From positions 3,906,001 to 3,970,000 of the forward strand of contig OZ210884.1 in assembly GCA_964658305.1 (NCBI GenBank): a DNA stretch of 64,000 nucleotides, given 5' to 3'. This stretch comes from Leptogorgia sarmentosa. Taxonomy: Eukaryota. Of this stretch, positions 12,001-47,688 are shown piece by piece. A program made the position numbers and the translations under genes. Position 1 is the first letter of the stretch, and each line of letters begins with the position of its first letter. A model generated the notes under the pieces. The model was not told the origin of the DNA. It ran no database searches and saw nothing but the letters and a program-made list of their open reading frames with translations.

Positions 12001-12384
12001 ACTCTGGAGGACCTGGGGCTACAACCGTTGGAGTTCAGAATAAATTACGTTCAAGAATATATCAAGCGATTGCTGTCTTCGTGGTCGGGATCTGATGTCG
12101 CCGAAATTGACCTAAATGTTGCACTGGTCAAATATGGAATTGACTCGATTACTGCAACAAATATGAAACTGCAAATACAAAATAGCATTGGCGCTGTCTT
12201 CGAGGTAGGTATCATTAAAGACGCATTATTATTAAATATAGGTGCATGTGTGCACGGCGGAAAATGAACAACTTGTTGCTTGCATTATTTTTAATAACAG
12301 CAATGAAAATTGCCAATATTGTTAATAGCTGTCAACAATATTGTTCATCATTGTTATACCCGAGTGAAACACAACAATATATAT

Positions 12385-13128
12385 ATGTTATTTACCAGCT
12401 GGGAGGTCCGTACTGGAAAATATTTTGTCGAGGTCTCAAAAACAGTCCGAGGCCGAAGGCCGATGGACGTTTTTGAGACCGAGACAAAATATTTTCCTGT
12501 ACGGACCGACCTAAATGGTAAATAACTTATTTATTTTTTTTCTCCTCGATGTTATGATAAAATTCGTCAAAAATTCCAGTGTTGCGAACTAGATTTTGAG
12601 ATCAGTTTGTTTGTTTACTTTGCTACTCTATCGCAAGTATGGCTGCTAAACAGCCAAGACGAAGTGAGAAAAAACCCTTCAATATTGACGCATTTGCTTC
12701 AATATTGACGCTTTCCCACTCAACAATACTACGAAAAAGGTAAACTTATTAAAACTATTTATTTTCCCGTTCGTTTCACGATACAAACATGGTTAAAATA
12801 CGCTTTAGACACCGAAATATTTCGCCAAGAATGTTTTGTTTTGTTCATACTGATGAGACTTTGTTGATATTTATGAGTTTTTGTCGCTGTAAATACCCAC
12901 TAAAAAATCCCTTAGCATAATAAAATGAACTTTCATGTATTCTTTATCGTCTAAATTCGTTTTGAATGTTTTAAAAAGCGGCCATTTAATTTTAAAAACA
13001 AAAACATTGACTATATTTGTATCTACGAGAGTGCGGCCGGTCCGTACCGTAGGATACGGACCGCTCGGCAACCAATCAGAAAGCTCTATTTAGGTTACGG
13101 ACCGGAGTTACGGACCGGAAAAAAATAA
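12385..13128. mobile_element. Hairpin-bearing dispersed repeat in PKS intron 4 (also at about 41240-41983)
   Basis: Imperfect palindrome at 12387-12526 centred on CCGAGGCCGAAGGCCG; the other end has CCAATCAG and AAATAA. Confidence 0.55.
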
Positions 13129-13397
13129 TGTTCGATATCATTGACAACTATGAACAATATTGGCGGCAAAACATTGCTCAAACCTGTAGAACTGCAGGCT
13201 CGAAATTTTTTGCTGTGTAACAGTAGTAGCAGCAGGTCAAAGTCAACCTTATAAATGTTTGACGGATATGCGTCAATTCTAAGGTTTTTTCTTTGTTCCT
13301 ATAGAAATTGTTGTCTGCGCATCTGTATTTCATGAAAAACTGTTGAAGTATATGCAAATATGAACGGTCTCTTTGAAAAAAATACTATAGCTTCTAC

Positions 13398-13934
13398 TAT
13401 ATTAGTTTAGCATAAATTTTCAAGTAACTATAACATTTCCTGCAATCTGATTGGTTAAAATTTGCTGTCTCTGGTGTTATAGTCACTGGGCAGTGACTAT
13501 AAAGATTTTCATAATTAAAATTCAAAATGGCCGCTCGGTTTGCTGAAGTTTCGCAGGAGGAAATTGACAAAATTAAACAAGAAAGCATCCCCAAGAAAGT
13601 TAAACAAGCGACAAAATATGGTTTAAAAATCTTTCAAAGTAAAATATTTTATTTATTGTTATTTTTATGCAACAAAACTGGCTTTTTTCACTAGCAAAGT
13701 GGCGATATGAGCGTGAACTATTTTATGTAAACAAACTATAAGCAAAGTAAACAAAACTTGAATTTCTACTTAACAGACAGTTTGAATCAAATCAGTTTGA
13801 CCTGGGAATTTATACTAAAACAATTAGTCGCCTCAGGCTTCGGTGATTACAAGCTCATAGTCACCTCGGCGCTTCGCGCCTTGGTTACTATGACCTTGTA
13901 ATCACCTCGCCTTCGGCGACTAATTGTTAAATAC
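13398..13934 (+). mobile_element. Non-autonomous Crypton-like element retaining a short first coding exon (also at about 42253-42789)
   Basis: CTGATTGG motif, then ATG at 13527 encoding MAARFAEVSQEEIDKIKQESIPKKVKQATKYGLKIFQ followed by GT. This resembles the N-terminus of Crypton/DUF3504-type tyrosine-recombinase proteins (recognised from memory). A long terminal hairpin lies at 13819-13929. Confidence 0.55.
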
Positions 13935-16900
13935 TAGCATCTTTCACCTTTATAGTCGTCGGAACAGTGGCAGCACCCATCTGGCAAAACGTGAGAAAAA
14001 GTCGGGCTTAATTACTGTAAAACTTGCCAAAAGAAATAACAATTTCCCGGATTCTTATTAAAAACCGCTAAAAAAGCCATCTTCAAAATTTTCTCGCTCG
14101 CCTCGTGAGATTCCGCCTCCTCGCTGCCTGTTCAAATAAATACCATGACCATGCTCTTCAGTCGGGCAAAATACCGTAACAACCCCCCCCCCCCTTTTTT
14201 ATCATGTACTGGTAAATGAGAAATATTTGTTTCGGAAAAAATCTCAATTTGGGCCCCCTCCTGATGAACAGCTGCCACGACGTCACTTCGTGGGAACATT
14301 TCATTGTATCTGCTGATTTATTTGAATAGAGTTTGCAAGCCTTTGCGAGCTTTGTTTCGTCCGGTCCGAAAAATCGTTCGGTTTTTCTTTCGGCCCTCCA
14401 AATTTCGTAATTACTTCTGCCAAAATTGTGAGAATGTAGTACTGAGGATGCTGAGAATGTAGTAATGATGATCTTGAAAGATTTTTTACAATATCAGATT
14501 TATAAAATAACCGGAAGTAAGTGAACAAGACTGCGCGCATGTGATTGGCTAACAGCCGTGTTAATGTGAGATTATGTAAACACAGCTATTTCCCGCTGCT
14601 TCTCGCTATTGCGTTATTCCGCTTTGGTCATCGTGTTATTTTATAAAAGTTTTTCGTTTCGTTAAACACATTTCTCGTTCTCCCAAACTTGCACTCGTGT
14701 TTACATAACTCGATGTAGACATGGAAAATGTTTTCTATTCCTTAAATATCAAACGACAAGAACTTCTAAACAGAATAATTAGTGCTATAATAACAATCTC
14801 GCAGCTGGCAAAACAATAGCATAACTCATTATCCGTTACATTGCCATTTCTCTTTAACATTTAGACTTACTATTTCATTCAACCGAAGACAACTGGCCTT
14901 AGTATCATCAGAAATATCTTGGAACAGATTGAAAACATTAGTTCAGATTGTAATGAAGATGACCCAATCAATGGAAATGGGCAATCCATGTCGTCTGATA
15001 ATATTCAGGGTCCGAAAAAAGGAGTAAATGCAAACCCAAGCAATGGCTTTGAGCTAGTGGAGCTACAAACTGTTGAAACAGATACGCGAAGAGAGAAAGT
15101 TATTCCACTTTATGATCCAGATGACGCTGTTGTTAATGTGTTCCTTATTCACAGCAGCCTGAAATCAGCGCTAGCTTTGGCACCTTTTGCCCAGGGTTTT
15201 CAACAACAGGTAAATTTTAATGGAAAGTGAACATATTAAATGTCATAAAAATTTGTCTGGCCACAATATTGAACGTGCAAACAAGGTTTGGTGAATATAC
15301 CTCTAATTTACCATCCTGAGCTTAATATATAAATTTGCTTTTTTAACAATAGTAGGGCATGTAAAGGACGTATTATGGTAATACTTTTGCATTTTCCTAA
15401 ACCAGTGACATATAAAACCCTCGAAAAAACAGTGAACCAATGTTTAGGAATATTTAAAATTAATGGAACCTTCTAATTTTCATCTAGCAAAAAGCATCAA
15501 CATTTCCGAAAAAAATTTCTGCACTTTTCACAATTTGTGACTTAAACTTCAAACAAATTATATTAACCATATTTGAATCTAATCAGAATTTGTAAGGAAG
15601 TAAAGAGTTTAAACTGGAAATTTTGGCAAATTTGCAAGTATCAATATAACTTTAACTGCATGGATAACATATTCCATTTTATCAATTAAACGAAACATGT
15701 TGTGTAGAGTACGTTATACAGTGCCAATAGCTATTTACTGAATAATGGATAGTAACTATATTTTTCTTGACCTTATGCATGTTCTAAACACAATATGTAT
15801 ATGCCGTTTGCCTGTGCAGTATAGAGTGGCAGCAATATAGGTCGGTACACGAAAATGTTCGTGAATTTCGACAGTACATTCATTGAAATGGCGTGTTTTT
15901 GCAGCATTAACACATGATACGTATTGTAAAATTGCAACATTTTCTTCAAAATTGCGTATCTAAATTTAGACAAGTGTTGCATTGTATGGTATTGGCTTGG
16001 ATGATGCTTCTTTTCAGAGGAGTGATTATGGAACTGTTCTGACTCTCGCACAAAGATATGTGGGCCTTATTAAAGAAATTCAGTCACATGGTCCGTATTA
16101 CCTCGGTAAGAAATTCAGCAAAACTTCGTCGAATGCGATGTGATTATCGGTATAATTCTCACCGGATGAAGTCGAGGTGCATATTCACCATAGCCACTGA
16201 GTCACTATATTACTGCATGGCCACAATTTTCAGCAATTATATTTATACTAATGTGCTCTTATAACCTTGTTGTAGCGGGCTACTCCTTTGGTGGTACCGT
16301 AGCGTATGAAATGGCCAGTGATCTGAAACGAAGTAATGAGACTGTCGCGATGGTATTCATGATAGATACCTACGCGTGGTTTCCTAAAGCTTTGACGAAC
16401 TGCAGTGAATATTTAAGAAAGGGCGCAGTAGAAAATATGAAGTCAGCCGAAACGTTTGTGGTAAATTTACATACACATTACTTATTAATTTCCGTGTAGT
16501 GCATTTCGATTTATCGTCCCACGGAATAGACACTAATATATAACAGACAGATACTAATAGTCTTACTAAGTTATATTCATTCCATTTGGCCTAACAAGTT
16601 TGGTTGGAATACGGGGAGGGAGTAACTGTAAATATACTAAGGTAACAAATAATTATTTCGTTATATTAATTATTTGTTTTAATTTACAGACAAGGCAAGT
16701 AATTGAAAAGGTGGCTTTTGTTGCGCTGGGTATAACACAGAATGAACTGAATGATTTGTACAAGGAGTTTGTCGACGATGAGAAAGTAATAGCGGCTTTG
16801 GAAAGCCATGCTACCGAGAAAAACGTGGATTTTTCGTTGAAAGATAATGTTGAAACTGTGCGTTACGAAATAAAAGCCGCCACTAAGGCTCACAATGAGT

Positions 16901-19814
16901 GGCAACCGTCCAAGGTATCTTTCTATTTGACGTTTTATCGAATTGGATCAAAATCAATAGACCGATTGCATGATGGACAAAATTTAAAGAAGATCAAAAT
17001 AGTAATATGATCAAATTAAAGTACAAACAGCGTTTAAGAGCATCCCAAAGTTGGTAAAATTTGAAAGTTTGGGTTTGAGAAATGTTGTAAAATGTGAAAA
17101 ATACACCCCCGCGAAATTTTCAAATTTTGTTAATTTTATAGTATTATACACGCAAAATTAGCACTTTTTTCACACACAAAACAATGGTCAGATGTTCTGG
17201 AGTATAGATCACTGAAACCGTGTTGTAACTATCACTATATACGCATACGTACATGTTGCGAAGGAGGATAAGGAGAATGACTGTTTCCAGATCCGTTTCG
17301 AAATTATCCGAAGTACAAATGAACAAAATTAAAATATTGTATGTTTCGAAGAATATCAGAATGTCCTCTTTTTGCCAAGTTGCAAATGCGTATAGATACT
17401 TCTTTTTACATCTTACAGATATGTTACAACGAAGCAATAACATTCATATGCTGTGATGAAACCAGCTCGTTTAGAATATGGAACCCTGAAATATGGAAGT
17501 CGTTGGTTAAAAGAATGGATTCTTTTTACGTTTCTGGAGGTCATTTCGAATTATGTGATGAGACTCGTGGCAAAATATGTGGTTCTATAATGATGACAAC
17601 AGCATCAATGAAGCATCGTTCAACGTTTTCAACTTTTAAGTTGCAAGTGGTCAGATCCAGACCCCAAGAGCGCCTCGTGCAGTCACTGAAGCAAGGCATG
17701 GACATTTGGATGTTGCCGAATCCAGGTATGATACGGAAACGTGACTGTCCAGGAAAACGACAACAGCGTTTCTGGCATCTTAATGTACAAGCGTTAGAAA
17801 AATGTCGCCCCACCCCTTTGCCCCTCCCAAAATTTTGTGTCCCTCAACCTTGGTTTTATTGAATTTTATGATTTTGCTTTTAAGCCTGACTGCTTTGTTT
17901 TTTAATGCAAGCATTTGTCCTGTTGCGGAGCCTGATAAACATGGTTCCTTTATATATTAGAACTGAAAAAACGTGTGCAGATAAGCGCCATATTAACCAT
18001 TGAATTTTATGGTTTCGCTCTAGGATCTTCAAAAGTCGTCAAAGGCATCCTGTTTTTGGATCAAGAAGAAACAGTGTTCAGATTTGAATACGAGTCGCTT
18101 GGACGTCGAAAAACGCGAAAGACTTTCCTAAAAGGTAATTAGTATAGGTAATCGCATGGGGCCGAGTAGCGACGAGGGCAATTTCTGAAACTTTGTGAAA
18201 ACACGCGTGAAATTAATCCTTAATTTTATACGAGGACCCAATGCGATTACATGTTAATCATATTGAAGACAAGATCCATTCAAACATAAATCGCTATAGA
18301 AGTTGATGTCCACTTCAGGTTTTAGATTCGGCACTTCGAGCGGCACTATATAGTTAATAATGTCGCTTAAAAACGTTGGGAAATGAAATAAACGATATAT
18401 ACAAATATATAACGATATATATCGATTTCACATGCGACAAACACTGCGAGGAAGCCATTAGTCCGACATGAAATGAACACGTAGAGAAAGCCCCATTTGA
18501 AACTGTTAAGTCTATTTCGTCAGAAACTAGTGTAACTACAGGGTGTTTCAGTTTTGTCGACACCTAGCTATGTCGCCATTATATCTGGTTGCTTCAACTT
18601 ATTTATATTATATTATTCAGAGCTTACCAACATCCTACCTGGCAGACATATCAACGCAATTAGAAAGAACAATGTCAACAAATCTCGCATAAATTCCCTG
18701 ATATGTATGATCACCAACAAAGGCAAGTTGATGACGTTCCATCCGAGCGATTGGCAACAACTTCAACAACTTACAGACGCGTTGCGAGCTCTCTTTGGGA
18801 TACCGTTTATGCAATAACTGTCGTATTTGTATCGATCTATGTTTAATTAATTATATATCACTTGCTTTTTTAATACAAGACTATATAATACGTTTATATG
18901 CACTAGAGCAAGTTTTCCGAATTCGTTCAAACATCTGAGGTAAAATTCTAAAACGCAAGAACAAAATTAATCTTCTAGTTTTTCATACTGTTACATGCAT
19001 GATCGTCGATGCACGAGAAAGAAAATCGTCATCATGCATTATATATTTTTTGCTGTGCTTTTCGAGCAAATTAATAGAGCAACAAATTTGAACAAAAAAG
19101 TAAACCCGCAAAAAATTCACACGAATTCTTTGTATGGAAGAGGAGTATTTCTCCTATCGCATTAATTCATTTGAACGAAGATTTGTTTTCTTTGGGTTTT
19201 GATGGTATCTAATGTTCGTATCCATGCGAAGTGTGAACAAACACCAAAACTGCTGAGTGAACTACTGAGGAGTTTCGTCATTGGCTGAAGCTTTCCTGAA
19301 TTCTGTATCGTACTCAGTTTGGCAATTTTCTAGGAGTTAAATCAATTTGGTGTGAAAGATAAAGAGAAAAATTGTAACGAAACGGCAAGCTTTGCTCTTA
19401 TGCTCTTTTCATAATATACAGTAGTATAACACTTAAAGTTGGGGATGGTTAATAATTTATGTGGTAAATTTAGATGTAAAAGTATAATATAATTATATAA
19501 GTAAATTACGTTTTCCATAGTTGAAAATTTAGCCAAGATCATCATATAATTGTAATGGGTTTTAATAAAATAAAAATCTTTAAATATGTAAAATGAGAAC
19601 GGAAGAACCTTTTTACATTCGTATTTCTGGGAAGTAGGTAGCACATTCAGGTCAGGATTATATTAATAAAAGTAAGGAGCTTCAGGGATAGTAATATTAA
19701 AAATCACTCGTCTCTATAATATTTGTTTCCAAACAACTTTGATCCAAACTAACTGCATTGGTGCGTTTTTGCATGGAAAAAGAGAGAAATATCACAGAAT
19801 TTTAATATCTAAAA

Positions 19815-29684: not shown

Positions 29685-30443
29685 TTAGTGTGCAGTATTG
29701 TACTCTTTGTGCAGTATTGAATAATAAGTATGCAGTATTGAATGCAAAAGTGCGCAGTATTGAATGCAAAAGTGCGCAGTATTGAAATTTGAGATTAAAA
29801 GTTTCAACTTTAGCTATATCAGATGTCCTGTGAGAACAATTAATGCACACGAAAAATTAAGTTCTGATATCTAAAATGACTTTACAAAAAATTCATTTGG
29901 CAAAGTCACATGAAAGTTTTGGCGAAATATTAGCCAGAGCAAGTTTCCAGTAAATCCAATATTAAACCTCCAGAAGATCGCAGTGCTTTGTGCAAATCGC
30001 GCCTTTATAAATTTACATTTATATAACTTAAACGTTAAAACATGCTATCACAAGATATCATCGCTATTGATATTTGGTCGGAAGTGTGCAGTATAGAAAT
30101 TTCCTTATAGAATAGGCCCTTGCATGGTTCGTCTTTGTTTTCGCCTTTTCGAAAGTCTTTAGTGCTCGCCCTCATTACAGCCTGCCATATTTTTGAGATC
30201 GTGATGACCACCATTAACCATACACTTGAGCCAAGAAGGCGGCGAAATAACGCTACGCTTTGCTTTTCTTCACCTGCATGGGTGCAAATAGCCGTGCGGA
30301 ATTAGTACCGCTCGCACCTTGGCTCGGGAAAGATATGTTATTTCCATTCACAACTTCAACAGCAGAAAATCACACATCTACATTTTCACAATTTGCCTAA
30401 ATAGCAATAGACCCACTTGAGTCGTCTACGATGATTTTGTAAC

Positions 30444-33400
30444 ATGGAAATGTTTTTACACAAACACAAACTTTTCATTTTAATTTGTAGCATCGGACGA
30501 AATGACGATGTTGATGTCCAACACATTTCCAATGAAAAACCAGATCCATGTTGTGGAGCTGGATTCTTGCGTCTCTGGGCATGGTTACAGAAGATATTTT
30601 TTCTTTTGCTGGAGAAAATTTTTGAAAAATCTGCCATGTTCATTTCAAGGCGCCCATTTCTTGTGATATTCTTTTGCCTATTCCTTGTGATTACTCTGAC
30701 GTGTGGTTTTTCCAAATTGAAGGTCGAAAGTAATGTAAAATACTTGTTTTTGCCCGAAGACAGCCAAGCATCACAGGATTTACAAAAGGCAAGACGTCTT
30801 GGCTTTGAATTTGAATTTCGACAAGAAGAGGTCATCTTTTTGGCTAAACATAATGCGTCTCTATTGTCGAAAGAATGCTTGTCTGAAATTGTTGACTTGC
30901 ACAAAATTATTACTGAGATAAAATATTACAACCAGCAGTGCTTTAGGGCAAACCCAAATAGCACGTGTGCATCGACAAATTTGTTAGAAATCTTCGATTA
31001 TCAAAAGAAAAATTTGTTCGATATTTCACGGCAAATTCAAACTGCACTCTTGAACGACACATTTTTGATGTCAAATGGAAGACGATTTCAAGATAATTTC
31101 AATCAAATATTTGGGAAAGGCTCTTCGAATGGTTCACTTGATTCTTCAACGGCTCTAAGAATTGTCTACTTCATGAAAGAATATTCAAGAGGAGACGAGA
31201 AAAGAGATGGCATACTAGAATGGGAAAATATTTTTCTTGATGAAGTATCGTCTTTTGCAAAAAACACGACATGTGTAAATATATTTTACTCCGCAGAAAG
31301 GAGCCTAGATGATTCAGTGAGTGAAAGTACTACCTCTGACATAAAGTTCTTTGCAATGACCTTTGTAATAATGGGAATTTTTAGTGGAGTTATAAACAGT
31401 AGATGCGGCGATGGTCGCTTTGGACACCAACTTTTAGGGTTCACTTCCTTGTTAGCCATTTATTTCGGTATCACAGCCGCGCTCGGTTTCTTAATGTTCA
31501 TCGGTGTTCCCTTTGTCAGTCTGGTTGGTGTTCTTCCATTTTTGGTGGTCAGTATTGGTATAGATGATGTGTTCATTATTCTACACGAGCTGAATGATAT
31601 GGTCCGACAAAATATCCCAGCAATGTATATGCTCAGTGGTACAATGGCAAGAAGTGGTCCAACTATAACCATGACGACTCTCACTGACCTCGTAGCATTT
31701 GCCGTTAGCTGTCGTTCCATCTTTCCAGCAATTCGCTTCTTCTGCACGTACGCTGCAGTAACAATTTGTTCTGCCTTCTTAATGCTGGTGACATTTTTTG
31801 TTGGTTGCATGTGGTTCGATATCAAACGAGTAAATGCTCAACGCAGAGATTTGTTGCCTTGTTTAATGAGTCCAGAACAAACCAGCTGCTGTTTGAATAT
31901 TCGGAAAAACGGATTTGACAATGCAATGAAAGCTTGGGGGAAGTTAATAACTTCTCTTCCCGGGAAAGTTGTGGTCTGTTTGTGCTCCTTACTTCTCTTG
32001 TCTGGTGGGATTTATGGCGCTCTCAATATAGACGAAAGTTTTAACAGGCAATTGTTAACATCCGAAGATTCATACTACCGGCAATTCCTGCAGATTTATG
32101 AAGGAAACTTTTTTCTCAATATCGAAGTCAGCATAATTTTTCCTGGACAATTCGATCACTCGAGTAAAGACATTCAGGAAATGTACTCGGATGTGGTAAA
32201 AGTTTCGGAAAGTAGTGAATATTTCATTCCGAGAAGAAGTTCATGGCTGTCTGAATACCAGTCCTGGGCCAAGGAAGAAAACATTGACATAAACGATACC
32301 AGCATCTTCTACAAAAACTTGCGTCATTTCATTTCATTGCCAAAATTCAAACGATTTTCTCAAGATCTGATGTTTTCTGAAAATAAAGAACATTTGTTGG
32401 CTTCGAGACTCCTAATATATTCCAAAGATAGCTCCGATTCAATCTTTCAGAGAGATATGATGATAAGCATTAGGGAAGATTTATCTCGTCTGACGGAACA
32501 CAATGCTTTTGCCGTTGCCCCATCTTTCATATACTTTGAACAGTATGCTCATGTTCTTAGCGAAACAATCAGGAACATAATTGTGGCTGGAATATCAATA
32601 CTCCTCATATCGTCAATGTTTTTGAATCATTTTGCAATAATAATTTGCTTGCTGTGTGGATTTATTGCTCTGATTATCGAACTTTTAGGACTAATGTACA
32701 TATGGGACGTTTCTATAAACTCAATTTCTATGATAAATCTTGTTATGGCCCTTGGGTTTTCCGTGGATTACAATGCACATGTGGCATTTCATTTTGTTTC
32801 CTCCAAGGCAGACTCCAACGAGCTTCGGGTAATTGATGCCCTCGGTAAAATTGGCGGTAGTGTTTTCCTTGGAGGATTAAGCACGTTTCTTGGAATGATG
32901 CCTACAGGATTTGCTTCCTCTACAGTATTTCAAATTTTCTTCAAAATGTTTGTTGGCATAGTCTTTCTTGGTCTGTTGCATGGTTTAGCTATACTGCCCG
33001 TGTACTTAACATTACTAGGAAATTTTTGTGACTTCCGTGAAATGAATATTGATGCATTTATTTCCAAAACGTTTAATCATCCAATCAAACACAAGCCTGG
33101 CGAAATTACCGAATCGAGTATCAACTCATCTAACTATCTTGCGAATGATGAAAGACCCAGTCCCGTTGGTGTCGTTGGAATGGCTTGTCGTTTTCCTGGT
33201 GGAGTAAACTCAAAAAATGATTTTTGGGATCTATTGGTGGAAGGTCGATGTGGTATTGGGTATTATCCCACAAACAGACCCGACTCTAGAGCCTTTACCG
33301 ACTGCTTCAGTTCTGGAAAAAATACACCTGGGAAACATCACGTTCTTACTGGTGGCTTTCTCGAACACATTACTGGGTTTGACGGCCAATTTTTCGGGAT

Positions 33401-36400
33401 TTCTCCATCAGAATGTCGATCAATGGATCCCCAACAGCGCATACTTCTTCAAGTTGTATACGAAGCAATAGAAGATGCTGGGATCCGCCTCGAAGATTTG
33501 CAGCAATGTCGAACTGGTGTTTATGTTGGATTAATGAACTCAGACTTTAGCTTACTTGTTATGCAACAATCAAATATTCGAAATGTTGATCAATTTTATT
33601 CTACTGGATGTGCTCAATCAATTGTCGCCAATCGCATTTCTTTCGCATTCAACTTAACCGGTCCAAGCTTGACGTTAGACACAGCGTGTTCGTCCTCCCT
33701 AGTAGCCTTGGATATTGCTTTCAGACATTTACAAACTGGTGAATGTGACGTAGCAATCGTGTGTGCTCCGAATATTCTTCTAACGGGTCACCAGTATCAC
33801 ATTGCATGCTGCAGGAGCGGGTTGTTAGCTGACGACGGTCGATGCAAAAGTTTCGATATAAAAGGAGATGGATATGGCCGGGGTGAAGGTGTAGCTGCAG
33901 TAGTAATCAAACCAGCTAAAACAGCCCAAGAAGATAATGATGATATTTATGCAGAAGTCGTTGCTTGCGGAGTAAATAATGATGGGCAAACAGCAATTCC
34001 CATGACAGCACCCAGTGAAGTGACCCAAGCTGCGTTATTTCAAAGAGTTCTTCAGGAATCTGGTCTTTCCAAAGATGAGATACAATACGTCGAAGTACAC
34101 GGCACTGGAACAGCCATTGGTGATGTCGTTGAAATGGGATCAGTAGCATCGGTTTATGGGAATAGCAGCAATAGAACACTTCGTCTAGGATCGGTGAAGT
34201 CGAACATAAACCACACAGAGTCAACTGCCGGTTTAGCTGGGTTAATCAAAACATGCTTGATGATAAAACATGCTCGATTTGTCCCTACCATTAACGTACA
34301 TGAGATCAAACCGCAGCTCAAGATATCCGACAGAAAAATGATGGTTCAACTTTGCAATGAATCTTGGGATACGAAAGATGGAGCACCAAGAATGGCTGCA
34401 GTTTCATCGTATGGATTTGGCGGTACAAATGCTCATGTAATTGTCAGAGAAGTCATCAAAATCCCTGAAACTGTAATATCGAAACGAAGTTCATCTAACA
34501 GAGTGATGACGTTATCTGCTGCTTCAAAAAATGCGTTGAGAGAACTGGCCCAGAAAGTGTCCCTGTCGGTTCAGACAAAATCAGATGACGACCAGATACT
34601 TAAAGATAATATTTGCTATTCGTTGAATGAAAGATACACAGTGCATTCTCATCGTTTAGCGCTAAGCTTTTCTTCTCTTCAACGTGCCTCTAGGGTTTTA
34701 AAAATCTTTGCTGATCAAGAAAGTGGATGGGAAAAATTAGTAGCTTACGGCGAAGTGCATAATCAGCGTGATAAGATTGTCTTCCTGTATGGCGGTCAAG
34801 GTGCTCAGTGGTATGGCATGGCAAGAGAAATGTTGATTCATGAGCCGAAATTTAAAGAGAGCATTGAAAAAATTGATTCATTACTTAAACGTTATGGTGC
34901 TTCTTGGTCCCTAATTTGCGAGCTCAACAAGTCTGAAGAAAATTCCCATCTTCATGTAAATCCCATTGGACAAACTGCCTTGTTTGCTATTCATTTTGCG
35001 CTAACTGAATTACTGGAATCTTGGGGTGTCACACCATCTGCTGTTGTTGGTCATAGTCTGGGAGAAATATCCGCAGCCTGGGCTTCCGGAGCGTTACGTT
35101 TACACAAAGCATTACAACTTGTTTTATTCCGCTCCCAGCTTCATGAGAAATGTTCACCTACAGGGTGCATGGCTGCCATTGGTCTTTCAGAAACGGATGC
35201 ACAAGCTATGCTGCAAGATATTGGATTGGAAAATGAAGTTGATGTTGCAGTCGTCAACAGCCCAGGGAACGTGGTGCTATCTGGCAGTAGAGATTCAATA
35301 GAGATCGTTGAAACTCATGTGACTAACTCACGAAGTGATGTATTCTGGAAGAAACTTGCAACTACGCGTGCATACCATAGTCGAGAAATGGAAGAAATAA
35401 AGGCATCATACTTCAAGCTCACAAGTAAATTCAACGTACGTCAGACGCACAGTAGTATCCCGTTTTACTCAACAGTTACGGGTGGTCAATTACCTGGTCA
35501 GCTTCTGTCACTGGAGCACTGGTGGAAAAACATTCGCCAAGCTGTTTTATTCGAGCCTGTATTGAAAACCATATTTTCCGATGGTTATCAGTTCTTCATT
35601 GAAATCAACGCTACTCCTCAACTCTCATATCATATTCGTCACACGTGGTCCTACCATCAAACGGTAAGTTCCCTCAATGCAAATAATGCTGTGGTCATCG
35701 AAACTCTTGCAAAACGTTCATCCAATCACCAGCACCTCTCCTTTCTTCAAAATTGTGCTGCCAATCTTTTTACAAATGGCGTTCAACTTACTTGGAGTAA
35801 GTTGCAAAACTCAGGATCTAAGTCATTTCTCAAACGTCCAGTGTATCCATGGCAAGAAATTGAGTTTTGGTACCGCGATGAAGAACCCCCAGAAACTGTT
35901 AGATTCCTTGATGACAAGAAACCTGCAGAAAATAAAGACATCGCCGCCTTTCATCCTCTCCTTGGAAGATCTGTGCCAACGCAACTGTTCACCGGTTTAC
36001 AAGCTTGGGAATCCGAAATCAATTTGCACGATGTTTCGTACATTAGCGACCACAAGTTCACTGAATCTTCTGTCCCAGTGCTGCCAGCTGCTCTTTACGT
36101 TGAGATGGTTTTAGCAATAACGCTACATTCATTCCCAAGATCAGCTCCTGATATTCAAGACATCAGCTTTGATCATTTGCTGACCATCTCCGAAAGTGAC
36201 TCGCTCAAAATTAGAACACGTCTCCTGCCTGAAGAATATCCTGGTGATAAAAAACAATTTCAGATTACAATAGTGGGTGAAAATGAGACTGAGGTGGTTC
36301 TCTCCAAAGGCTTCGTGCAGCAAGGCGTCAATGATGGCTACAGAACAGAAGGTAAGAAAAAAATTTGAAATAAACACTTATAGTTGTTTTGGGGCCGAAA

Positions 36401-39400
36401 TAAAAATATTAGCAATATATGTATGTTCTCACAAGCAATACCGAGAAGGTTGATATGGACTAACACCGTAGGCCCTCAGCGAGTACCAACATTCAAGCTT
36501 CTCTGCAATTAAGAAAACTATGATACACGTAACGGCAAAACAGTGATAGTAATTATTCTTCAATTGACAAAAGCCGATGACAAAATGAGTGTGGTTTTCA
36601 AAAATACATTTCAAATTGCAAATACTATATCTTGAATAAATTAAATGAATAGATACCGTTTGATGGCAGATGGACCTTTGTTGGAAAAAGCGGGTATTGG
36701 TTAACGTTGATAATTGAATAGTGATCTTTTGTTACAATATGTGACAAAGAAATTCGTTCATTTCGGAGAAATTGTTGTCAGTACAGTTCGAAAAAACCAT
36801 AATAATTGGCATGGAGCCACTTGAAATTTGTTGTAATTAAAGTGAATCTTGACTTGGCATGTAAACACCAGTGTACAACTGCTTTACTACAACCTATGTA
36901 TATAAATCCATGCGCTGCCCAATTAAAGCAAAATTTTGTTCCAATCTTTATTTGTATTACTTATTAATTTAGGAGTGTACCAACAAGAGAATTCCAACGT
37001 TATTGAAACTTTTAAATCGACTATGGTTAACCACTTCTCAAACGATTATTGCGAAAAGAAACGTCAAGAGAAAGGGTTTGCATTCGGGCCTCAATTTGAT
37101 ATAATAAAAGAGGCATGGTCCAGCAACAATGAAGCACTTGCACTCATACGTCCAACCGAAGAAATTACAAAAGAAGCATCATCTTATGTTATTCATCCGT
37201 CCATCATTGACGCATGTTTCCAAACAATGATTTTGGTTAAAGCTTTCGAAGGTAAATTTGTGCCTAGAAAAATAACACGTGTCACGATGGTGCAAAAACC
37301 TATATCCATGAAACAGTTTTATGCGCACACGCAGATCTTGGGATCAGAGAAAACGCCAACTTACAATATCACGCTAATGGATTGCCACGCCAGACCTATC
37401 ATGATTATTGAGAAATATGCCACAGCAGAAATCTCATCAGATATGTCAAACGTAACTTATGAGAATTCATCATTCACCCTCGGTTGGGAAGTGATAAAGC
37501 CCGAAACATCTGAATCTGCAAATCACGATTTCATTTGGCTTATTCTTAGCGATCAAAGCATGTTTGCCAAACGGTTTATACAACATATCCCAGCTAGTGA
37601 AAGGATGCTTTTGTTTGATGAAACATCGGACAAATTTTGTAAGGTATTAGAGGAAGTAGAAAGCAAGATGAAGAGGGATGAAAAGTTGTTGGTGATTAAT
37701 TTTTGGCCAGTGGATTGTTCAAAATATGAAGGCGATACGGACAGCGTTGGCGCTACCCATGAGTTGGCATTTGAAAGTTGTCTTGTCATATCACAGGAAA
37801 TTCTAAAGAGGGAAATCTTGTCCAAAAGGGCTCATCTTGTCTTCGTCACTTCAGGAGTCGTTATTATTCCTGAACATGATCCTGTTGTTGCTAATCCGGA
37901 CACTTTTCCATGGTCTGCTTCTCTTTTTGGATTCAGGAGGACCTTCGCAGAAGAAATCAAAGCACCAAGTGCGTCTTTAGTTGATTTGCCTTCCAATCCG
38001 GGGGATGAAGATTTCCAAATCTTGGTGGAAGATCTACGGAAGCCTGCTATGGAAGAAGAAATTGTTTACAGAAATGGGGTGCGTTATGGGAATCGCATTA
38101 AAGAATTGTGTCCAAGCGAAGCACGTTATACCAAGCCTACGTCTCCTTTCAACAAATGTGGAGAACAAATTCCATTTAAGATGACACGGATGTCCGGGCA
38201 GTGGTTTCTTCAAAAAAGATTAAATGACGAAATAAATAAAAGAAGTAAAATTGAAGTCTACTACGCTTGTCCAGTACTTCAAAAGCGATGGGAAGATCTT
38301 ACAACCAATGATCGCATGGCATTTGCAGGGAAATTGTTGAATCAAAAGGAAGAAAACCGAGTTTCATCTGTGGTTGGTGTTTGCAAAGTTGACGACCTCG
38401 GAAGTTACATTGAAGTAGAAAAATGTTCTTTCTCAGCGATTAATTCTCAGTTCTCCCCTCAGCAAGCTGCGTCACTCAGTTTTCCACTTGCAATATCCTA
38501 CCATATCCTTGCCAATCTTCTTGGTGTTATCCAGGGACAGAAAGTTCTTATTTACAATGAGAACGAGGAAGTATGCTGTATTTTTGCTTGCGTTGCGCTG
38601 TCGTTGGATATAAAAGTCATGTGCGTTGTCCAAAATGCTTCAAATAAAGATCAAATGAAGAAATTTGAAAACTTGGTGGTTGTTTCCGAAGACGAAATAA
38701 AAGCGGCCCAGCTGAATCATATGAGATGTATGGATTTAGATGCTGCTTGCTTTTTTAGTAAAAGCAGTACATTTGTCACTCAACAAATAATGAAACATCT
38801 TAAACCTGGTGCAAGAGTGATTATTGGCAATCAGGAAAAAAATGCAAAGTTTGACACATTCATTTCCGGTAAAAATGTCCAATGTACTGTTATCGCTAAT
38901 ATGGAAGATATGCTTGAGTATTCGTGCGATTTTTCGAAGTTATTGGTTTCATGCTATTCAGCTCTTCAATCGAAGAATCTGTTAGAAAGACTTCTGGAAA
39001 TTCCTCAACTAGTGTCAAGTATATATGACATGATGAATGATGCTTCTAAGAACACAGCTAACGAATCGTCGTGGAAAACTGGTTTCCACACAGTATCTTT
39101 GAAGCCAACGAATATTCCAGAAAAAGTGGATTTCTACAGCTTACCACTAGACACCAATGGTTTAAAAGCTGATTGTACATACCTCGTGATTGGCGGCGTT
39201 CGCGGTTTTGGGTTCGAATTCGCCAAATGGATGGTGGAAAACGGTGCAAAAACTGTCTTGTGTACGTCTCGTTCAACAGCGAGTGCGGAAAAGAAGGCAT
39301 TGGTTCGACAGTTAGAAGAGAATAATGGATCGCGCATTCTTCTACGGCAAGCAGATGCTACCTCTTACGAAGACATGAATCAAATTAAGAAAGAATTGGA

Positions 39401-42400
39401 AAGTTTACCTGCAGTAGCTGGAATTGCTTTCACCGCCATGATATTGGAAGACCAAATGCTCACCCTAGCCGACCAGGAAACATGCAAAATGGTCATGGAG
39501 ACAAAAGTAAAAGGTAAATTTTTAATGCCGCGGTCACCACCACTCGTTCGCATGCTTTGTGCATTGTTAATATCGATTACTGTTCTCTCTAATATAAACC
39601 TTTCCTCATGTTTCTGTGTAAAATGTTCAAGAGTATTTTCCGGTAACTGAATAAGTTATTTGGTGGGTAAATTAACTACACGATTTTCCTTAAAAATCAC
39701 AGTACTTTCGCCACAAACTACATCAACAGACTTACATCCCAAAGAATTCCATGAAGAAAAGCTCATTGGAGGATGTTCTCTAATTCACGACATAGTGTCT
39801 CAATAAAGCCAGTTTTGCCATGCATTTAAACAATATTTTGTCCTTTTGTTCTTATTTTTGTTTGTTTGCTTTTTCTTTAAGTTCTGATAGGTCAAATGAA
39901 TTTGCATTTACATGTATTTCCGCAATTTTGTTTTTATTTCAAAAATCATATCATGCAAACTGTGAATAAATGAATAATTGTACAACACTCGACCAATCGG
40001 CATCCAGTAATTTTCTTATGTAATTAATGAAATTCCAATGTACCATGCACAAAGGTATGTTACCGTAGTATGTTACTAAAATTATTTTCCCTTTTTACGG
40101 TATAATATAGGAAGTGTTATCCTTCACCAACTCAGTTTATCGATGGACTTAGATTTCTTTATCATGTTTTCTTCATTATCTGGCGCCCTTGGGAATATTG
40201 GGCAAGTTTCGTACGCTGCAGCCAACTCATTTATGGATCAGTTGTGTGAATATCGTCGACAGAAACTTGGCCTGCCCGCTCTGTCTGTTAATTGGGGACC
40301 GATCAGTGGAACTGGAGTGCTCGAGAGAAAAAGAAATGTTGCCTCAAATCTGGAGAAGGGCGGTTTACGTGGTTTACACTACACGACAGGTATTTTTTAG
40401 CGTCTTTATAAAATGGAAATAAATCTGATCGTTTTCAGATTATTTAGGGGATATTTAACCTTGTTTAAGTGATAATATTGAACAAACAAAAAATTTTGAC
40501 ATTGAAGTTTTCGTAACTATATTGTAAGAGTAGTCTCTTTGAGAATTCTACAGTTGGACAAATATTTTGTTATGCACAATATCTATACGAACGAGATACA
40601 GATATTATTATGAATGGCCCATACACATGAGCTATAAATTCCTCAAAGAAACTTTTGATTTTGCAGAAGAAATGAATTTTCTTTTTTTCCATAGCAATCG
40701 AGTTTTTAAAGCGTGTCTTACTTGAAAGCTCTGACCAAACTCAAGTGTGCTTGGCTGCGGTAAATTGGCAGGTCTATCTGCAAACTCATACTTCTCTCAG
40801 GCTACAAATATTTCGAGATAAAATGCAGATAACGAAAGGAGAGGAAAAAGACATGACTCTGGAGGACCTGGGGCTACAACCGTTGGAGTTCAGAATAAAT
40901 TACGTTCAAGAATATATCAAGCGATTGCTGTCTTCGTGGTCGGGATCTGATGTCGCCGAAATTGACCTAAATGTTGCACTGGTCAAATATGGAATTGACT
41001 CGATTACTGCAACAAATATGAAACTGCAAATACAAAATAGCATTGGCGCTGTCTTCGAGGTAGGTATCATTAAAGACGCATTATTATTAAATATAGGTGC
41101 ATGTGTGCACGGCGGAAAATGAACAACTTGTTGCTTGCAATATTTTTAATAACAGCAATGAAAATTGCCAATATTGTTAATAGCTGTCAACAATATTGTT
41201 CATCATTGTTATACCCGAGTGAAACACAACAATATATATATGTTATTTACCAGCTGGGAGGTCCGTACTGGAAAATATTTTGTCGAGGTCTCAAAAACGG
41301 TCCGAGGCCGAAGGCCGATGGACGTTTTTGAGACCGAGACAAAATATTTTCCTGTACGGACCGACCTAAATGGTAAATAACTTATTTATTTTTTTTCTCC
41401 TCGATGTTATGATAAAATTCGTCAAAAATTCCAGTGTTGCGAACTAGATTTTGAGATCAGTTTGTTTGTTTACTTTGCTACTCTATCGCAAGTATGGCTG
41501 CTAAACAGCCAAGACGAAGTGAGAAAAAACCCTTCAATATTGACGCATTTGCTTCAATATTGACGCTTTCCCACTCAACAATACTACGAAAAAGGTAAAC
41601 TTATTAAAACTATTTATTTTCCCGTTCGTTTCACGATACAAACATGGTTAAAATACGCTTTAGACACCGAAATATTTCGCCAAGAATGTTTTGTTTTGTT
41701 CATACTGATGAGACTTTGTTGATATTTATGAGTTTTTGTCGCTGTAAATACCCACTAAAAAATCCCTTAGCATAATAAAATGAACTTTCATGTATTCTTT
41801 ATCGTCTAAATTCGTTTTGAATGTTTTAAAAAGCGGCCATTTAATTTTAAAAACAAAAACATTGACTATATTTGTATCTACGAGAGTGCGGCCGGTCCGT
41901 ACCGTAGGATACGGACCGCTCGGCAACCAATCAGAAAGCTCTATTTAGGTTACGGACCGGAGTTACGGACCGGAAAAAAATAATGTTCGATATCATTGAC
42001 AACTATGAACAATATTGGCGGCAAAACATTGCTCAAACCTGTAGAACTGCAGGCTCGAAATTTTTTGCTGTGTAACAGTAGTAGCAGCAGGTCAAAGTCA
42101 ACCTTATAAATGTTTGACGGATATGCGTCAATTCAAAGGTTTTTTCTTTGTTCCTATAGAAATTGTTGTCTGCGCATCTGTATTTCATGAAAAACTGTTG
42201 AAGTATATGCAAATATGAACGGTCTCTTTGAAAAAAATACTATAGCTTCTACTATATTAGTTTAGCATAAATTTTCAAGTAACTATAACATTTCCTGCAA
42301 TCTGATTGGTTAAAATTTGCTGTCTCTGGTGTTATAGTCACTGGGCAGTGACTATAAAGATTTTCATAATTAAAATTCAAAATGGCCGCTCGGTTTGCTG

Positions 42401-45400
42401 AAGTTTCGCAGGAGGAAATTGACAAAATTAAACAAGAAAGCATCCCAAGAAAGTTAAACAAGCGACAAAATATGGTTTAAAAATCTTTCAAAGTAAAATA
42501 TTTTATTTATTGTTATTTTTATGCAACAAAACTGGCTTTTTTCACTAGCAAAGTGGCGATATGAGCGTGAACTATTTTATGTAAACAAACTATAAGCAAA
42601 GTAAACAAAACTTGAATTTCTACTTAACAGACAGTTTGAATCAAATCAGTTTGACCTGGGAATTTATACTAAAACAATTAGTCGCCTCAGGCTTCGGTGA
42701 TTACAAGCTCATAGTCACCTCGGCGCTTCGCGCCTTGGTTACTATGACCTTGTAATCACCTCGCCTTCGGCGACTAATTGTTAAATACTAGCATCTTTCA
42801 CCTTTATAGTCGTCGGAACAGTGGCAGCACCCATCTGGCAAAACGTGAGAAAAAGTCGGGCTTAATTACTGTAAAACTTGCCAAAAGAAATAACAATTTC
42901 CCGGATTCTTATTAAAAACCGCTAAAAAAGCCATCTTCAAAATTTTCTCGCTCGCCTCGTGAGATTCCGCCTCCTCGCTGCCTGTTCAAATAAATACCAT
43001 GACCATGCTCTTCAGTCGGGCAAAATACCGTAACAACCCCCCCCCCTTTTTTTATCATGTACTGGTAAATGAGAAATATTTGTTTCGGAAAAAATCTCAA
43101 TTTGGGCCCCCTCCTGATGAACAGCTGCCACGACGTCACTTCGTGGGAACATTTCATTGTATCTGCTGATTTATTTGAATAGAGTTTGCAAGCCTTTGCG
43201 AGCTTTGTTTCGTCCAGTCCGAAAAATCGTTCGGTTTTTCTTTCGACCCTCCAAATTTCGTAATTACTTCTGCCAAAATTGTGAGAATGTAGTACTGAGG
43301 ATGCTGAGAATGTAGTAATGATGATCTTGAAAGATTTTTTACAATATCAGATTTATAAAATAACCGGAAGTAAGTGAACAAGACTGCGCGCATGTGATTG
43401 GCTAACAGCCGTGTTAATGTGAGATTATGTAAACACAGCTATTTCCCGCTGCTTCTCGCTATTGCGTTATTCCGCTTTGGTCATCGTGTTATTTTATAAA
43501 AGTTTTTCGTTTCGTTAAACACATTTCTCGTTCTCCCAAACTTGCACTCGTGTTTACATAACTCGATGTAGACATGGAAAATGTTTTCTATTCCTTAAAT
43601 ATCAAACGACAAGAACTTCTAAACAGAATAATTAGTGCTATAATAACAATCTCGCAGCTGGCAAAACAATAGCATAACTCATTATCCGTTACATTGCCAT
43701 TTCTCTTTAACATTTAGACTTACTATTTCATTCAACCGAAGACAACTGGCCTTAGTATCATCAGAAATATCTTGGAACAGATTGAAAACATTAGTTCAGA
43801 TTGTAATGAAGATGACCCAATCAATGGAAATGGGCAATCCATGTCGTCTGATAATATTCAGGGTCCGAAAAAAGGAGTAAATGCAAACCCAAGCAATGGC
43901 TTTGAGCTAGTGGAGCTACAAACTGTTGAAACAGATACGCGAAGAGAGAAAGTTATTCCACTTTATGATCCAGATGACGCTGTTGTTAATGTGTTCCTTA
44001 TTCACAGCAGCCTGAAATCAGCGCTAGCTTTGGCACCTTTTGCCCAGGGTTTTCAACAACAGGTAAATTTTAATGGAAAGTGAACATATTAAATGTCATA
44101 AAAATTTGTCTGGCCACAATATTGAGCGTGCAAACAAGGTTTGGTGAATATACCTCTAATTTACCATCCTGAGCTTAATATATAAATTTGCTTTTTTAAC
44201 AATAGTAGGGCATGTAAAGGACGTATTATGGTAATACTTTTGCATTTTCCTAAACCAGTGACATATAAAACCCTCGAAAAAACAGTGAACCAATGTTTAG
44301 GAATATTTAAAATTAATGGAACCTTCTAATTTTCATCTAGCAAAAAGCATCAACATTTCCGAAAAAAATTTCTGCACTTTTCACAATTTGTGACTTAAAC
44401 TTCAAACAAATTATATTAACCATATTTGAATCTAATCAGAATTCGTAAGGAAGTAAAGAGTTTAAACTGGAAATTTTGGCAAATTTGCAAGTATCAATAT
44501 AACTTTAACTGCATGGATAACATATTCCATTTTATCAATTAAACGAAACATGTTGTGTAGAGTACGTTATACAGTGCCAATAGCTATTTACTGAATAATG
44601 GATAGTAACTATATTTTTCTTGACCTTATGCATGTTCTAAACACAATATGTATATGCCGTTTGCCTGTGCAGTATAGAGTGGCAGCAATATAGGTCGGTA
44701 CACGAAAATGTTCGTGAATTTCGACAGTACATTCATTGAAATGGCGTGTTTTTGCAGCATTAACACATGATACGTATTGTAAAATTGCAACATTTTCTTC
44801 AAAATTGCGTATCTAAATTTAGACAAGTGTTGCATTGTATGGTATTGGCTTGGATGATGCTTCTTTTCAGAGGAGTGATTATGGAACTGTTCTGACTCTC
44901 GCACAAAGATATGTGGGCCTTATTAAAGAAATTCAGTCACATGGTCCGTATTACCTCGGTAAGAAATTCAGCAAAACTTCGTCGAATGCGATGTGATTAT
45001 CGGTATAATTCTCACCGGATGAAGTCGAGGTGCATATTCACCATAGCCACTGAGTCACTATATTACTGCATGGCCACAATTTTCAGCAATTATATTTATA
45101 CTAATGTGCTCTTATAACCTTGTTGTAGCGGGCTACTCCTTTGGTGGTACCGTAGCGTATGAAATGGCCAGTGATCTGAAACGAAGTAATGAGACTGTCG
45201 CGATGGTATTCATGATAGATACCTACGCGTGGTTTCCTAAAGCTTTGACGAACTGCAGTGAATATTTAAGAAAGGGCGCAGTAGAAAATATGAAGTCAGC
45301 CGAAACGTTTGTGGTAAATTTACATACACATTACTTATTAATTTCCGTGTAGTGCATTTCGATTTATCGTCCCACGGAATAGACACTAATATATAACAGA

Positions 45401-47688
45401 CAGATACTAATAGTCTTACTAAGTTATATTCATTCCATTTGGCCTAACAAGTTTGGTTGGAATACGGGGAGGGAGTAACTGTAAATATACTAAGGTAACA
45501 AATAATTATTTCGTTATATTAATTATTTGTTTTAATTTACAGACAAGGCAAGTAATTGAAAAGGTGGCTTTTGTTGCGCTGGGTATAACACAGAATGAAC
45601 TGAATGATTTGTACAAGGAGTTTGTCGACGATGAGAAAGTAATAGCGGCTTTGGAAAGCCATGCTGCCGAGAAAAACGTGGATTTTTCGTTGAAAGATAA
45701 TGTTGAAACTGTGCGTTACGAAATAAAAGCCGCCAGTAAGGCTCACAATGAGTGGCAACCGTCCAAGGTATCTTTCTATTTGACGTTTTATCGAATTGGA
45801 TCAAAATCAATACACCGATTGCATGATGGACAAAATTTAAAGAAGATCAAAATAGTAATATGATCAAATTAAAGTACAAACAGCGTTTAAGAGCATCCCA
45901 AAGTTGGTAAAATTTGAAAGTTTGGGTTTGAGAAATGTTGTAAAATGTGAAAAATACACCCCCGCGAAATTTGCAAATTTTGTTAATTTTATAGTATTAT
46001 ACACGCAAAATTAGCACTTTTTTTCACACACAAAACAATGGTCAGATGTTCTGGAGTATAGATCACTGAAACCGTGTTGTAACTATCACTATATACGCAT
46101 ACGTACATGTTGCGAAGGAGGATAAGGAGAATGACTGTTTCCAGATCCGTTTCGAAATTATCCGAAGTACAAATGAACAAAATTAAAATATTGTATGTTT
46201 CGAAGAATATCAGAATGTCCTCTTTTTGCCAAGTTGCAAATGCGTATAGATACTTCTTTTTACATCTTACAGATATGTTACAACGAAACAATAACATTCA
46301 TATGCTGTGATGAAACCAGCTCGTTTAGAATATGGAACCCAGAAATATGGAAGTCGTTGGTTAAAAGAATGGATTCTTTTTACGTTTCTGGAGGTCATTT
46401 CGAATTATGTGATGAGACTCGTGGCAAAATATGTGGTTCTATAATGATGACAACAGCGTCAATGAAGTATCGTTCAACGTTTTCAACTTTTAAGTTGCAA
46501 GTGGTCAGATCCAGACCCCAAGAGCGCCTCGTGCAGTCACTGAAGCAAGGCATGGACATTTGGATGTTGCCGAATCCAGGTATGATACGGAAACGTGACT
46601 GTCCAGGAAAACGACAACAGCGTTTCTGGCATCTTAATGTACAAGCGTTAGAAAAATGTCGCCCCACCCCTTTGCCCCTCCCAAAATTTTGTGTCCCTCA
46701 ACCTTGGTTTTATTGAATTTTATGAATGATTTTGCTTTTAAGCCTGACTGCTTTGTTTTTTAATGCAAGCATTTGTCCTGTTGCGGAGCCTGATAAACAT
46801 GGTTCCTTTATATATTAGAACTGAAAAAACGTGTGCAGATAAGCGCCATATTAACCATTGAATTTTATGGTTTCGCTCTAGGATCTTCAAAAGTCGTCAA
46901 AGGCATCCTGTTTTTGGATCAAGAAGAAACAGTGTTCAGATTTGAATACGAGTCGCTTGGACGTCGAAAAACGCGAAAGACTTTCCTAAAAGGTAATTAG
47001 TATAGGTAATCGCATGGGGCCGAGTAGCGACGAGGGCAATTTCTGAAACTTTGTGAAAACACGCGTGAAATTAATCCTTAATTTTATACGAGGACCCAAT
47101 GCGATTACATGTTAATCATATTGAAGACAAGATCCATTCAAACATAAATCGCTATAGAAGTTGATGTCCACTTCAGGTTTTAGATTCGGCACTTCGAGCG
47201 GCACTATATAGTTAATAATGTCGCTTAAAAACGTTGGGAAATGAAATAAACGATATATACAAATATATAACGATATATATCAATTTCACATGCGACAAAC
47301 ACTGCGAGGAAGCCATTAGTCCGACATGAAATGAACACGTAGAGAAAGCCCCATTTGAAACTGTTAAGTCAACTTTTGAAACTGTTAAGTTAAACTACAG
47401 GGTGTTTCAGAAAAAAATGTGAAGTTGTCGACACCTAGCTATGTCGCCATTATATCTGGTTGCTTCAACTTATTTATATTATATTATTCAGAGCTTACCA
47501 ACATCCTACCTGGCAGACATATCAACGCAATTAGAAAGAACGATGTCAACAAGTCTCGCATAAATTCTCTGATATGTATGATCACCAACAAAGGCAAGTT
47601 GATGACGTTCCATCCGAGCGATTGGCAACAGCTTCAACAACTTACAGACGCGTTGCGAGCTCTCTTTGGAATACCGTTTATGCAATAA
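30444..47688 (+). CDS. Patched/NPC1-family 12-TM domain fused to a type I polyketide synthase (KS-AT-DH-psiKR-ER0-KR-ACP-TE) with a C-terminal PH-like domain; intact copy, about 3532 aa
   Basis: Exons: 30444-36351, 36973-39513, 40111-40389, 40695-41059, 43718-44062, 44823-44958, 45129-45313, 45543-45767, 46273-46579, 46882-46992, 47492-47688. All introns are GT-AG with compatible phases; total 10599 nt. Motifs: SSD GIDDVF and GFSVDY; KS DTACSSS, HGTGT, KSNINH; AT GHSLG; DH His (DHKF...LP) and DACFQ; KR GGVRGFG and YAAAN; ACP GIDS; TE GYSFGG and GGHF. The 5' end is uncertain because tttgtag at 30484-30490 looks like a splice acceptor. Confidence 0.9.
30650..33015 (+). other. Patched/PTCHD3/NPC1-like RND-type 12-TM domain (N-terminal part of the fusion)
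   Basis: TM1 (PFLVIFFCLFLVITLTCGF), then a luminal loop, then the sterol-sensing domain (PFLVVSIGIDDVFII; GPTITMTTLTDLVAF), TM7, a second loop, and TM8-12 (LGFSVDYNAH; GLLHGLAILPVYL). Confidence 0.92.
33160..35770 (+). other. KS-AT didomain of the fusion protein
   Basis: VGMACRFPGG, MDPQQR, Cys in DTAC (33687), His in HGTGT (34098), second His (34212), SSYGFGGTNAH, GQGAQW, Ser in GHSLG (35055), RAYHS (35367). Confidence 0.95.

Follow-up and report, generated by a model that had tools for sequence, protein, structure and literature searches.

A PTCHD3-like RND membrane module joined in frame to a type I polyketide synthase in the octocoral Leptogorgia sarmentosa: a candidate synthase-exporter

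Gene structure of the fusion

We analysed a 64,000-nucleotide stretch of the Leptogorgia sarmentosa genome (GenBank assembly GCA_964658305.1, contig OZ210884.1, positions 3,906,001 to 3,970,000, forward strand), hereafter the window, numbered from its first letter. At 30444-47688 on the plus strand lies a gene that joins a Patched-family membrane module of the RND superfamily to a polyketide synthase (PKS) of type I. The join is carried by a single stop-free frame (30435-36368, +) of 1977 codons, 1974 of them from an ATG at 30444; across 200 base-shuffled versions of this stretch, no stop-free run exceeded 205 codons. This frame encodes a 12-helix Patched/RND module, a linker of about 45 residues, and ketosynthase (KS), acyltransferase (AT) and dehydratase (DH) domains. 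Pfam places the Patched sterol-sensing domain (SSD) at residues 317-456 (E 9e-26), Sterol-sensing at 330-474, KS at 907-1161 and 1169-1285, AT at 1446-1780 and the N-terminal DH half at 1837-1941 of the long open reading frame (ORF). An earlier sequence-only reading had proposed such an uninterrupted ORF, and both the frame and the Pfam matches bear it out.

The exon model was based on GT-AG sites. It comprises 11 exons (30444-47688, +) encoding 3532 aa with one stop only, at the end, and all 10 introns have a GT donor and an AG acceptor. The resulting domain order is RND-KS-AT-DH-pseudoER-KR-ACP-TE (where ER stands for enoylreductase, KR for ketoreductase, ACP for acyl carrier protein and TE for thioesterase), followed by a tail of predicted PH fold. 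The model is collinear with the Dendronephthya RefSeq protein P0114 (tblastn matches, exons 1-11) and with a full-length protein of the jellyfish Sanderia malayensis (P0158, 3629 aa). The ten further exons of the sequence-only reading, adding KR, ACP, TE and an extra domain, thus hold, the extra domain being the predicted PH fold. Its start codon fared less well: the ATG at 30444 (first 15 codons) is probably intronic and the real first exon would then lie elsewhere, because a pyrimidine-rich AG acceptor follows at 30489-30490, a second copy of the gene upstream (copy 1, below) has a 1-bp indel between the counterpart of this ATG and the acceptor, and the alignment of a sequencing-run contig (X5#23) begins at 30488, with 73 letters at that end unplaced. 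The full Sanderia model likewise begins just before the first transmembrane helix (TM1). The features of the gene are as follows.

30491..36351, +, large coding exon: RND, linker, KS, AT and first half of DH; probable acceptor 30489-30490, donor GT at 36352
30564..33023, +, Patched/PTCHD3-like RND module, 12 TM helices and two luminal domains; TM4 GIDD (D374, D375), TM10 GFSVD (D775)
33024..33158, +, linker of ~45 aa, conserved in length, not in sequence
33159..34454, +, ketosynthase; C1082, H1219 and H1257 intact
34779..35783, +, acyltransferase; GHSLG (S1538) and RAYH motif, the latter xAFH in P0030 and Sanderia
35952..36266, +, N-terminal half of dehydratase; H1870, with its partner D2049 in exon 2
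36973..39513, +, exon 2: C-terminal half of DH, structural KR subdomain, pseudo-ER, first half of KR (GGVRGFG)
~38172-39134, +, putative pseudo-ER within exon 2; NADPH motif lost
40111..40389, +, exon 3: second half of KR (Y2851)
40695..41059, +, exon 4: ACP (GIDS, S3012)
43718..44062, +, exon 5: end of ACP, linker, start of TE
44823..44958, +, exon 6: TE
45129..45313, +, exon 7: TE nucleophile GYSFG (S3195) and D3222
45543..45767, +, exon 8: TE lid region
46273..46579, +, exon 9: TE H3370 and start of predicted PH-like domain
46882..46992, +, exon 10: predicted PH-like domain
47492..47688, +, exon 11: end of predicted PH-like domain and stop codon

Introns 4 and 10 contain high-copy repeats (41100-43600 and 47000-47400), at which contig depth in runs X1 and X2 reaches up to about 1000-fold that over exons; these are probably non-autonomous transposons.

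The RND membrane module

The AF2 model of the RND module, built from an alignment of 38 sequences, reached a pLDDT of 81.9 and a pTM of 0.78. Both the model and its Foldseek matches show 12 TM helices in two repeats together with two luminal domains; a simple hydropathy plot recovers 10 of the 12 TM segments. The best Foldseek matches were NPC1L1 (E 2.7e-38, TMq 0.79) and NPC1 (TMq ~0.8), followed by PTCH1 (~0.76), MmpL (~0.6) and Dispatched (~0.57). Taking the acidic motifs of the RND superfamily as GxxxDD in TM4 and GxxxD in TM10, we find both intact: SIGIDD at 370-375 (D374, D375) and GFSVD at 771-775 (D775). Motifs of this kind serve ion coupling in RND proteins. Conservation of residues, motifs and linker was counted over 35 fused homologues, in which TM4 G[IV]DD is kept in 29 and the TM10 Asp in 32. 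In the close relatives P0002-P0029 the TM regions are conserved like the KS (SSD 78-91%, KS 77-86%). The spacing from TM12 to the KS (P853-G909) is 51-55 residues in 35/35 homologues, with a linker identity of only 5-42%.

The label Patched/NPC1-type given by the sequence-only reading is right as to a Patched-family RND module of 12 helices and too broad as to NPC1. More specifically, the N-terminal luminal sterol-binding domain of NPC1 (13 TM) found no match, the alignment to human NPC1 starting at its residue 334, and the TIGR00917 score was 274 for a cut-off of 1016. Since the nearest named relatives of the module are annotated PTCHD3-like, it is, by sequence, best filed as PTCHD3-like, not NPC1.

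The synthase domains and the C-terminal tail

KS, AT, DH, KR, ACP and TE lie in one chain with their catalytic residues present (KS C1082/H1219/H1257, AT S1538, DH H1870/D2049, KR Y2851, ACP S3012, TE S3195/D3222/H3370), as in a single-module type I PKS, and we read the AT, from its motifs, as malonyl-type. The KS scores higher against bacterial CurL (332 bits) than against mammalian fatty acid synthase (FAS; 254). An ESM Atlas search with the 1974-aa ORF returned generic PKS clusters only (≤0.83).

For the ER, the model gave no Pfam or PDB match. A family profile of the segment at ~2370-2690 yielded weak matches to bacterial ER segments (best iE 0.003), and the bacterial HAGAGGVG-type NADPH motif is replaced in this protein, which suggests that the segment is an ER-derived, degenerate pseudo-ER. 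An active ER with an NADPH motif, as in animal FAS or fully reducing PKS, is therefore missing from the model, and domain searches of the model found no methyltransferase domain. The sequence-only reading had called the PKS complete; this stands for KS-AT-DH-KR-ACP-TE and fails for the ER and the methyltransferase. In PKS logic, KR and DH without ER lead to enoyl or polyene chains. A budgerigar PKS makes polyenes (PMC10764717).

The last ~120 residues are conserved as far as Sanderia. Fold prediction for this tail was made on homologues, with Atlas matches to ISP3 (0.90) and PH_14 (0.89). The model of a tail homologue had a pLDDT of 52.7; Foldseek gave none at E≤0.001, its matches being mostly PH chains, and comparison with PLC-gamma1 gave a VIA Z of 9.0 (rmsd 3.8, 113 aligned). 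These results are individually weak and mutually concordant, and the tail is predicted to adopt a PH fold.

Distribution and evolution of the fusion

To search for relatives, the RND part was compared with 4345 candidate proteins of 1452-4145 aa. Within this length range, 34 relatives were obtained, of which all 34 carry KS and 33 the Patched SSD, so that the fusion sought by the sequence-only reading in related genomes does recur. Named relatives are the octocorals Dendronephthya and Paramuricea and the jellyfish Sanderia and Rhopilema; the closest are the octocorals, with 68-74% identity over exon 1. Sanderia malayensis P0158 has the same domain order, tail included, and Rhopilema P0379/P0380 and Dendronephthya P0129 also join RND and PKS.

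Twenty fused KS domains formed one clade (support 1.0) in a tree whose outgroup was 12 bacterial KS, with no other animal PKS. The RND tree intermixes fused and stand-alone cnidarian sequences with deep supports of 0.09-0.84 and accommodates a single fusion event as well as several; the apparently solo sequences P0206-P0209 stop in TM11, apparently at an intron. Among the best 150 RND representatives at the 50% level, most of them unnamed, those identified as fused were P0031, P0095, P0340 and P0347, and the two named bilaterian matches were of stand-alone length (849 and 873 aa). These sequences hint faintly at a fusion restricted to cnidarians. A metagenome scan covering 4 of 64 parts found mostly unfused KS, with an RND match at 2 of 79 loci.

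Transcripts and the tandem copy

None of the sequencing runs is recorded as RNA, and X4 and X5 are taken as RNA-derived solely because one contig joins exons. In this contig, X4#21 (2205 nt), the pieces 38422-39511, 40693-41057 and 43716-44060 follow one another, with a segment of exactly 279 nt, the length of exon 3, between the first two; X4#21 is therefore spliced. Spliced contigs are evidence that the PKS part is expressed. Contig X5#25 spans 32993-33433 with one mismatch, an interval that starts at the end of TM12 and extends into the KS. It answers the call of the sequence-only reading for reads over 32900-33300 in part: the junction is covered, but since the interval lies within one exon the contig alone is no proof of a single transcript. 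In addition, a 9477-nt JGI/IMG contig (P0001) is 100% identical over residues 560-1260, across the junction. Clusters of differences in X1, X2 and X5 contigs (32753-32819 and 34838-34925) suggest more diverged paralogues in the same organism.

Copy 1 lies in tandem at 851..19812 (+) and is 99.1% identical to the studied copy. The frameshift that had been suspected near 4136 is a genuine 2-bp insertion at 4135-4136 in this upstream copy and is not found in the studied one; it shifts the frame in TM12, with a stop after codon 4151, and the downstream PKS exons of copy 1 are free of indels. Between the copies, substitutions are fewer in exons (31/10599 bases) than elsewhere (73/8361), which points to purifying selection until recently; the codon changes comprise 13 synonymous and 17 non-synonymous. 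Two readings of the second copy stand, a true tandem duplication and a haplotype mis-join.

Several further observations concern the surroundings of the copies. A 175-bp RND-exon fragment (24060-24234, 93.5% to 31667-31852) is stranded between them as a rearrangement relic. Four-base microsatellites occur at matching relative positions in both copies (19815-20503 and 49221-49441; TGGG x172, AGGT x55), and these arrays give spurious ORFs. A multi-exon ABCC/MRP-type ABC transporter gene (49473-60295, -) faces the PKS gene tail to tail, with 1.8 kb between it and the PKS stop codon. Its last exon is repeated behind copy 1 (20285-21717), where it is 94% identical, as against 99% for the PKS copies. 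The ABCC product could be a second exporter, a neighbourhood seen in this window.

Relation to known systems

The sequence-only reading knew of no characterised protein with this architecture. The novelty of the architecture is refuted by a preprint (bioRxiv 10.64898/2026.04.08.717340), one sentence of which, in the part available, states that most cnidarian PKSs bear a patched domain. The gene described here, a cnidarian one with Patched, KS, AT, DH, KR and TE, has the architecture stated for that clade. The accessible portion of the preprint contains no motif, product or function analysis and no mention of a pseudo-ER or a PH-like tail. New here are the intact D374/D375/D775 motifs, the description of a pseudo-ER and of a predicted PH-like tail, and the connection drawn to the bilaterian PKS-PTCHD3 neighbourhood. 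Our literature search, with most subscription papers outside its reach, found no functional study of a Patched-PKS fusion, and the word patched has 0 occurrences in the main text of Lin et al. 2024 (PMC10764717). Acropora PKSs are listed as 'other-KS-AT-DH-KR-(ACP)-TE', with a suggested link to mineralisation (PMC4604110, in part); we infer that 'other' corresponds to the RND module.

In bilaterians the same two gene types are linked as separate genes (medaka OlPKS, budgerigar MuPKS, clam MpES, lizard Pks/Ptchd3), whereas in the cnidarian protein they are fused. In the available excerpts of the respective papers, nearly every animal homologue of the clam PKS has PTCHD3 as a neighbouring gene (PMC9894158), wall lizards have both Pks and Ptchd3 in multiple tandem copies (PMC10990284), seastar PKS1 and PTCHD3 fall within one 56-kb window (PMC12330192), and pks15 and a patched3-like gene are jointly upregulated in coloured mussel nacre tissue (PMC12652611). 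Bilaterian PKSs are likewise single-module and iterative, and medaka OlPKS is found at the apical membrane, with a lipophilic, secreted product (PMC4604110). Most vertebrate PKSs are listed as KS-AT-DH-KR-ACP with no TE, whereas the cnidarian fusion has one. The literature within reach yielded nothing tying PTCHD3 to export, and the available text of PMC11739604 holds nothing further on PTCHD3.

With other eukaryotic RND proteins (PTCHD3/Patched-related, PTCH1, NPC1/NPC1L1, Dispatched) the module shares the 12-TM fold, two luminal domains and the TM4/TM10 acidic motifs; unlike them, the fusion carries ~2600 aa of enzyme C-terminally, and it has no NPC1 N-terminal domain. A bacterial precedent for coupled synthesis and export is mycobacterial MmpL7, which binds PpsE in the PDIM system, so that an RND transporter and a type I PKS are in physical association there too (PMC1238737, in part). 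That link is non-covalent and bacterial and involves a distant RND branch (MmpL structures, TMq ~0.6 to this module).

Discussion

We think it probable that the protein is an iterative synthase, bound to a membrane, which makes an unsaturated lipid and exports it itself. The sequence-only reading's idea of a membrane-anchored synthase and putative transporter is supported by conservation among cnidarians, by the RND fold, by acidic motifs that are still intact and by the published neighbourhood of PKS and PTCHD3. In PTCH1 and NPC1 the C-terminus is in the cytosol. With the same topology, the RND module would sit in the membrane with a cytosolic C-terminus, holding the KS dimer ~50 residues from the bilayer. 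The iterative PKS would then condense malonyl units, reduce and dehydrate them, and, as the ER appears dead, leave the chain unsaturated; we give about even chances to a conjugated or partly reduced fatty chain as the outcome. The chain would be freed by the TE, which the PH-like tail may recruit to the membrane, and would then be carried by the RND module, via D374/D375/D775, to the outer leaflet or into the extracellular matrix. Such a product could serve as a pigment, in nucleating mineral or as a surface lipid. Since the gene is present in jellyfish and in Palythoa, we reject a role confined to the skeleton as the general account.

A number of observations weigh against this proposal. Transport, product and membrane location of the protein are predictions. 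Among the aligned run contigs, none spans the whole transcript, and the TE is ~2200 residues away from the RND module. A long-branch fused clade (proteins P0340, P0402 and P0347; loci L001:546-6164 and L002:628-5265) has lost both acidic motifs and retained the KS, with an intact KS triad in L001 and L002, the two checked; by sequence it is a possible pseudo-transporter subfamily. The TM4 motif is also altered in P0031, P0011, P0020 and P0029, and ion-coupled transport would thus be dispensable in parts of the family. The gene is missing from at least one Palythoa species (bioRxiv 10.64898/2026.04.08.717340, in part), OlPKS yielded an active product in a fungus without a supplied Patched partner (PMC4604110, in part), and the ABCC gene offers an alternative exporter.

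The motif-less clade and the ABCC neighbour also speak for a different account, in which the RND module serves chiefly to anchor the PKS at a secretory membrane or as a passive conduit there, with export by diffusion, vesicles or the ABCC protein; the clade has kept all its hydrophobic segments and the fusion. We consider this account unlikely, since one helix would do for an anchor, as against the 820 residues and two luminal domains present, and since both motifs are intact in this gene and in the majority of homologues, those of octocorals and jellyfish alike.

Less likely still is that the module acts as a sensor of a sterol or another lipid and so regulates PKS activity or stability, in the logic of SCAP and HMG-CoA reductase, or that it supplies the KS with an imported starter lipid. 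The SSD match (E 4e-29) and the direct attachment of the KS would fit such a role, and NPC1-type proteins carry sterol inward. On the other hand, SCAP matches residues 293-425 only (E ~5e-5) whereas NPC1 and PTCH1 match both repeats, and the sterol-binding N-terminal domain of NPC1 is unmatched. Regulation of the HMG-CoA-reductase type, raised by the sequence-only reading, finds little support because the entire 12-helix transporter with both luminal domains is kept, rather than the SSD alone. It is very improbable that the fusion arose artificially, by misassembly or read-through, or that its parts separate after translation: copy 1 has its frameshift where the RND module ends, and the database models P0114, P0027 and P0133 start within the RND module or at the KS, but the in-frame junction and its spacing are the same in all 35 homologues, and P0001 and X5#25 both match across it.

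A synthase that exports its own product would bear on a broader question: in the parts of the literature available, we found no answer as to the export route of animal polyketides (the medaka otolith-nucleating lipid, pigment polyenes) or the cargo of PTCHD3. It is conceivable, at somewhat less than even odds, that the fusion reveals a unit of synthesis and export found throughout animals, in which PTCHD3-type RND proteins have the dedicated task of exporting the polyene lipids of animal PKSs; the two parts would be one protein in cnidarians and neighbouring genes in bilaterians. The natural fusion makes the PKS-PTCHD3 neighbour correlation testable in one protein. Its presence in jellyfish and zoanthids strains the proposed link between PKS and biominerals. 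Octocoral polyenes appear as a reference title in PMC4930200, and the gene is a host-encoded candidate for the conjugated ones. Placental mammals have no PKS (PMC10764717, in part) and human PTCHD3 nulls are without overt phenotype (PMC3072306, in part); if the proposal is true, PKS loss in placental mammals would explain this dispensability. The fusion would then unite PKS and RND in a eukaryotic machine of one chain, its thioesterase docked through the PH-like domain, and would be a candidate source of octocoral polyene pigments.

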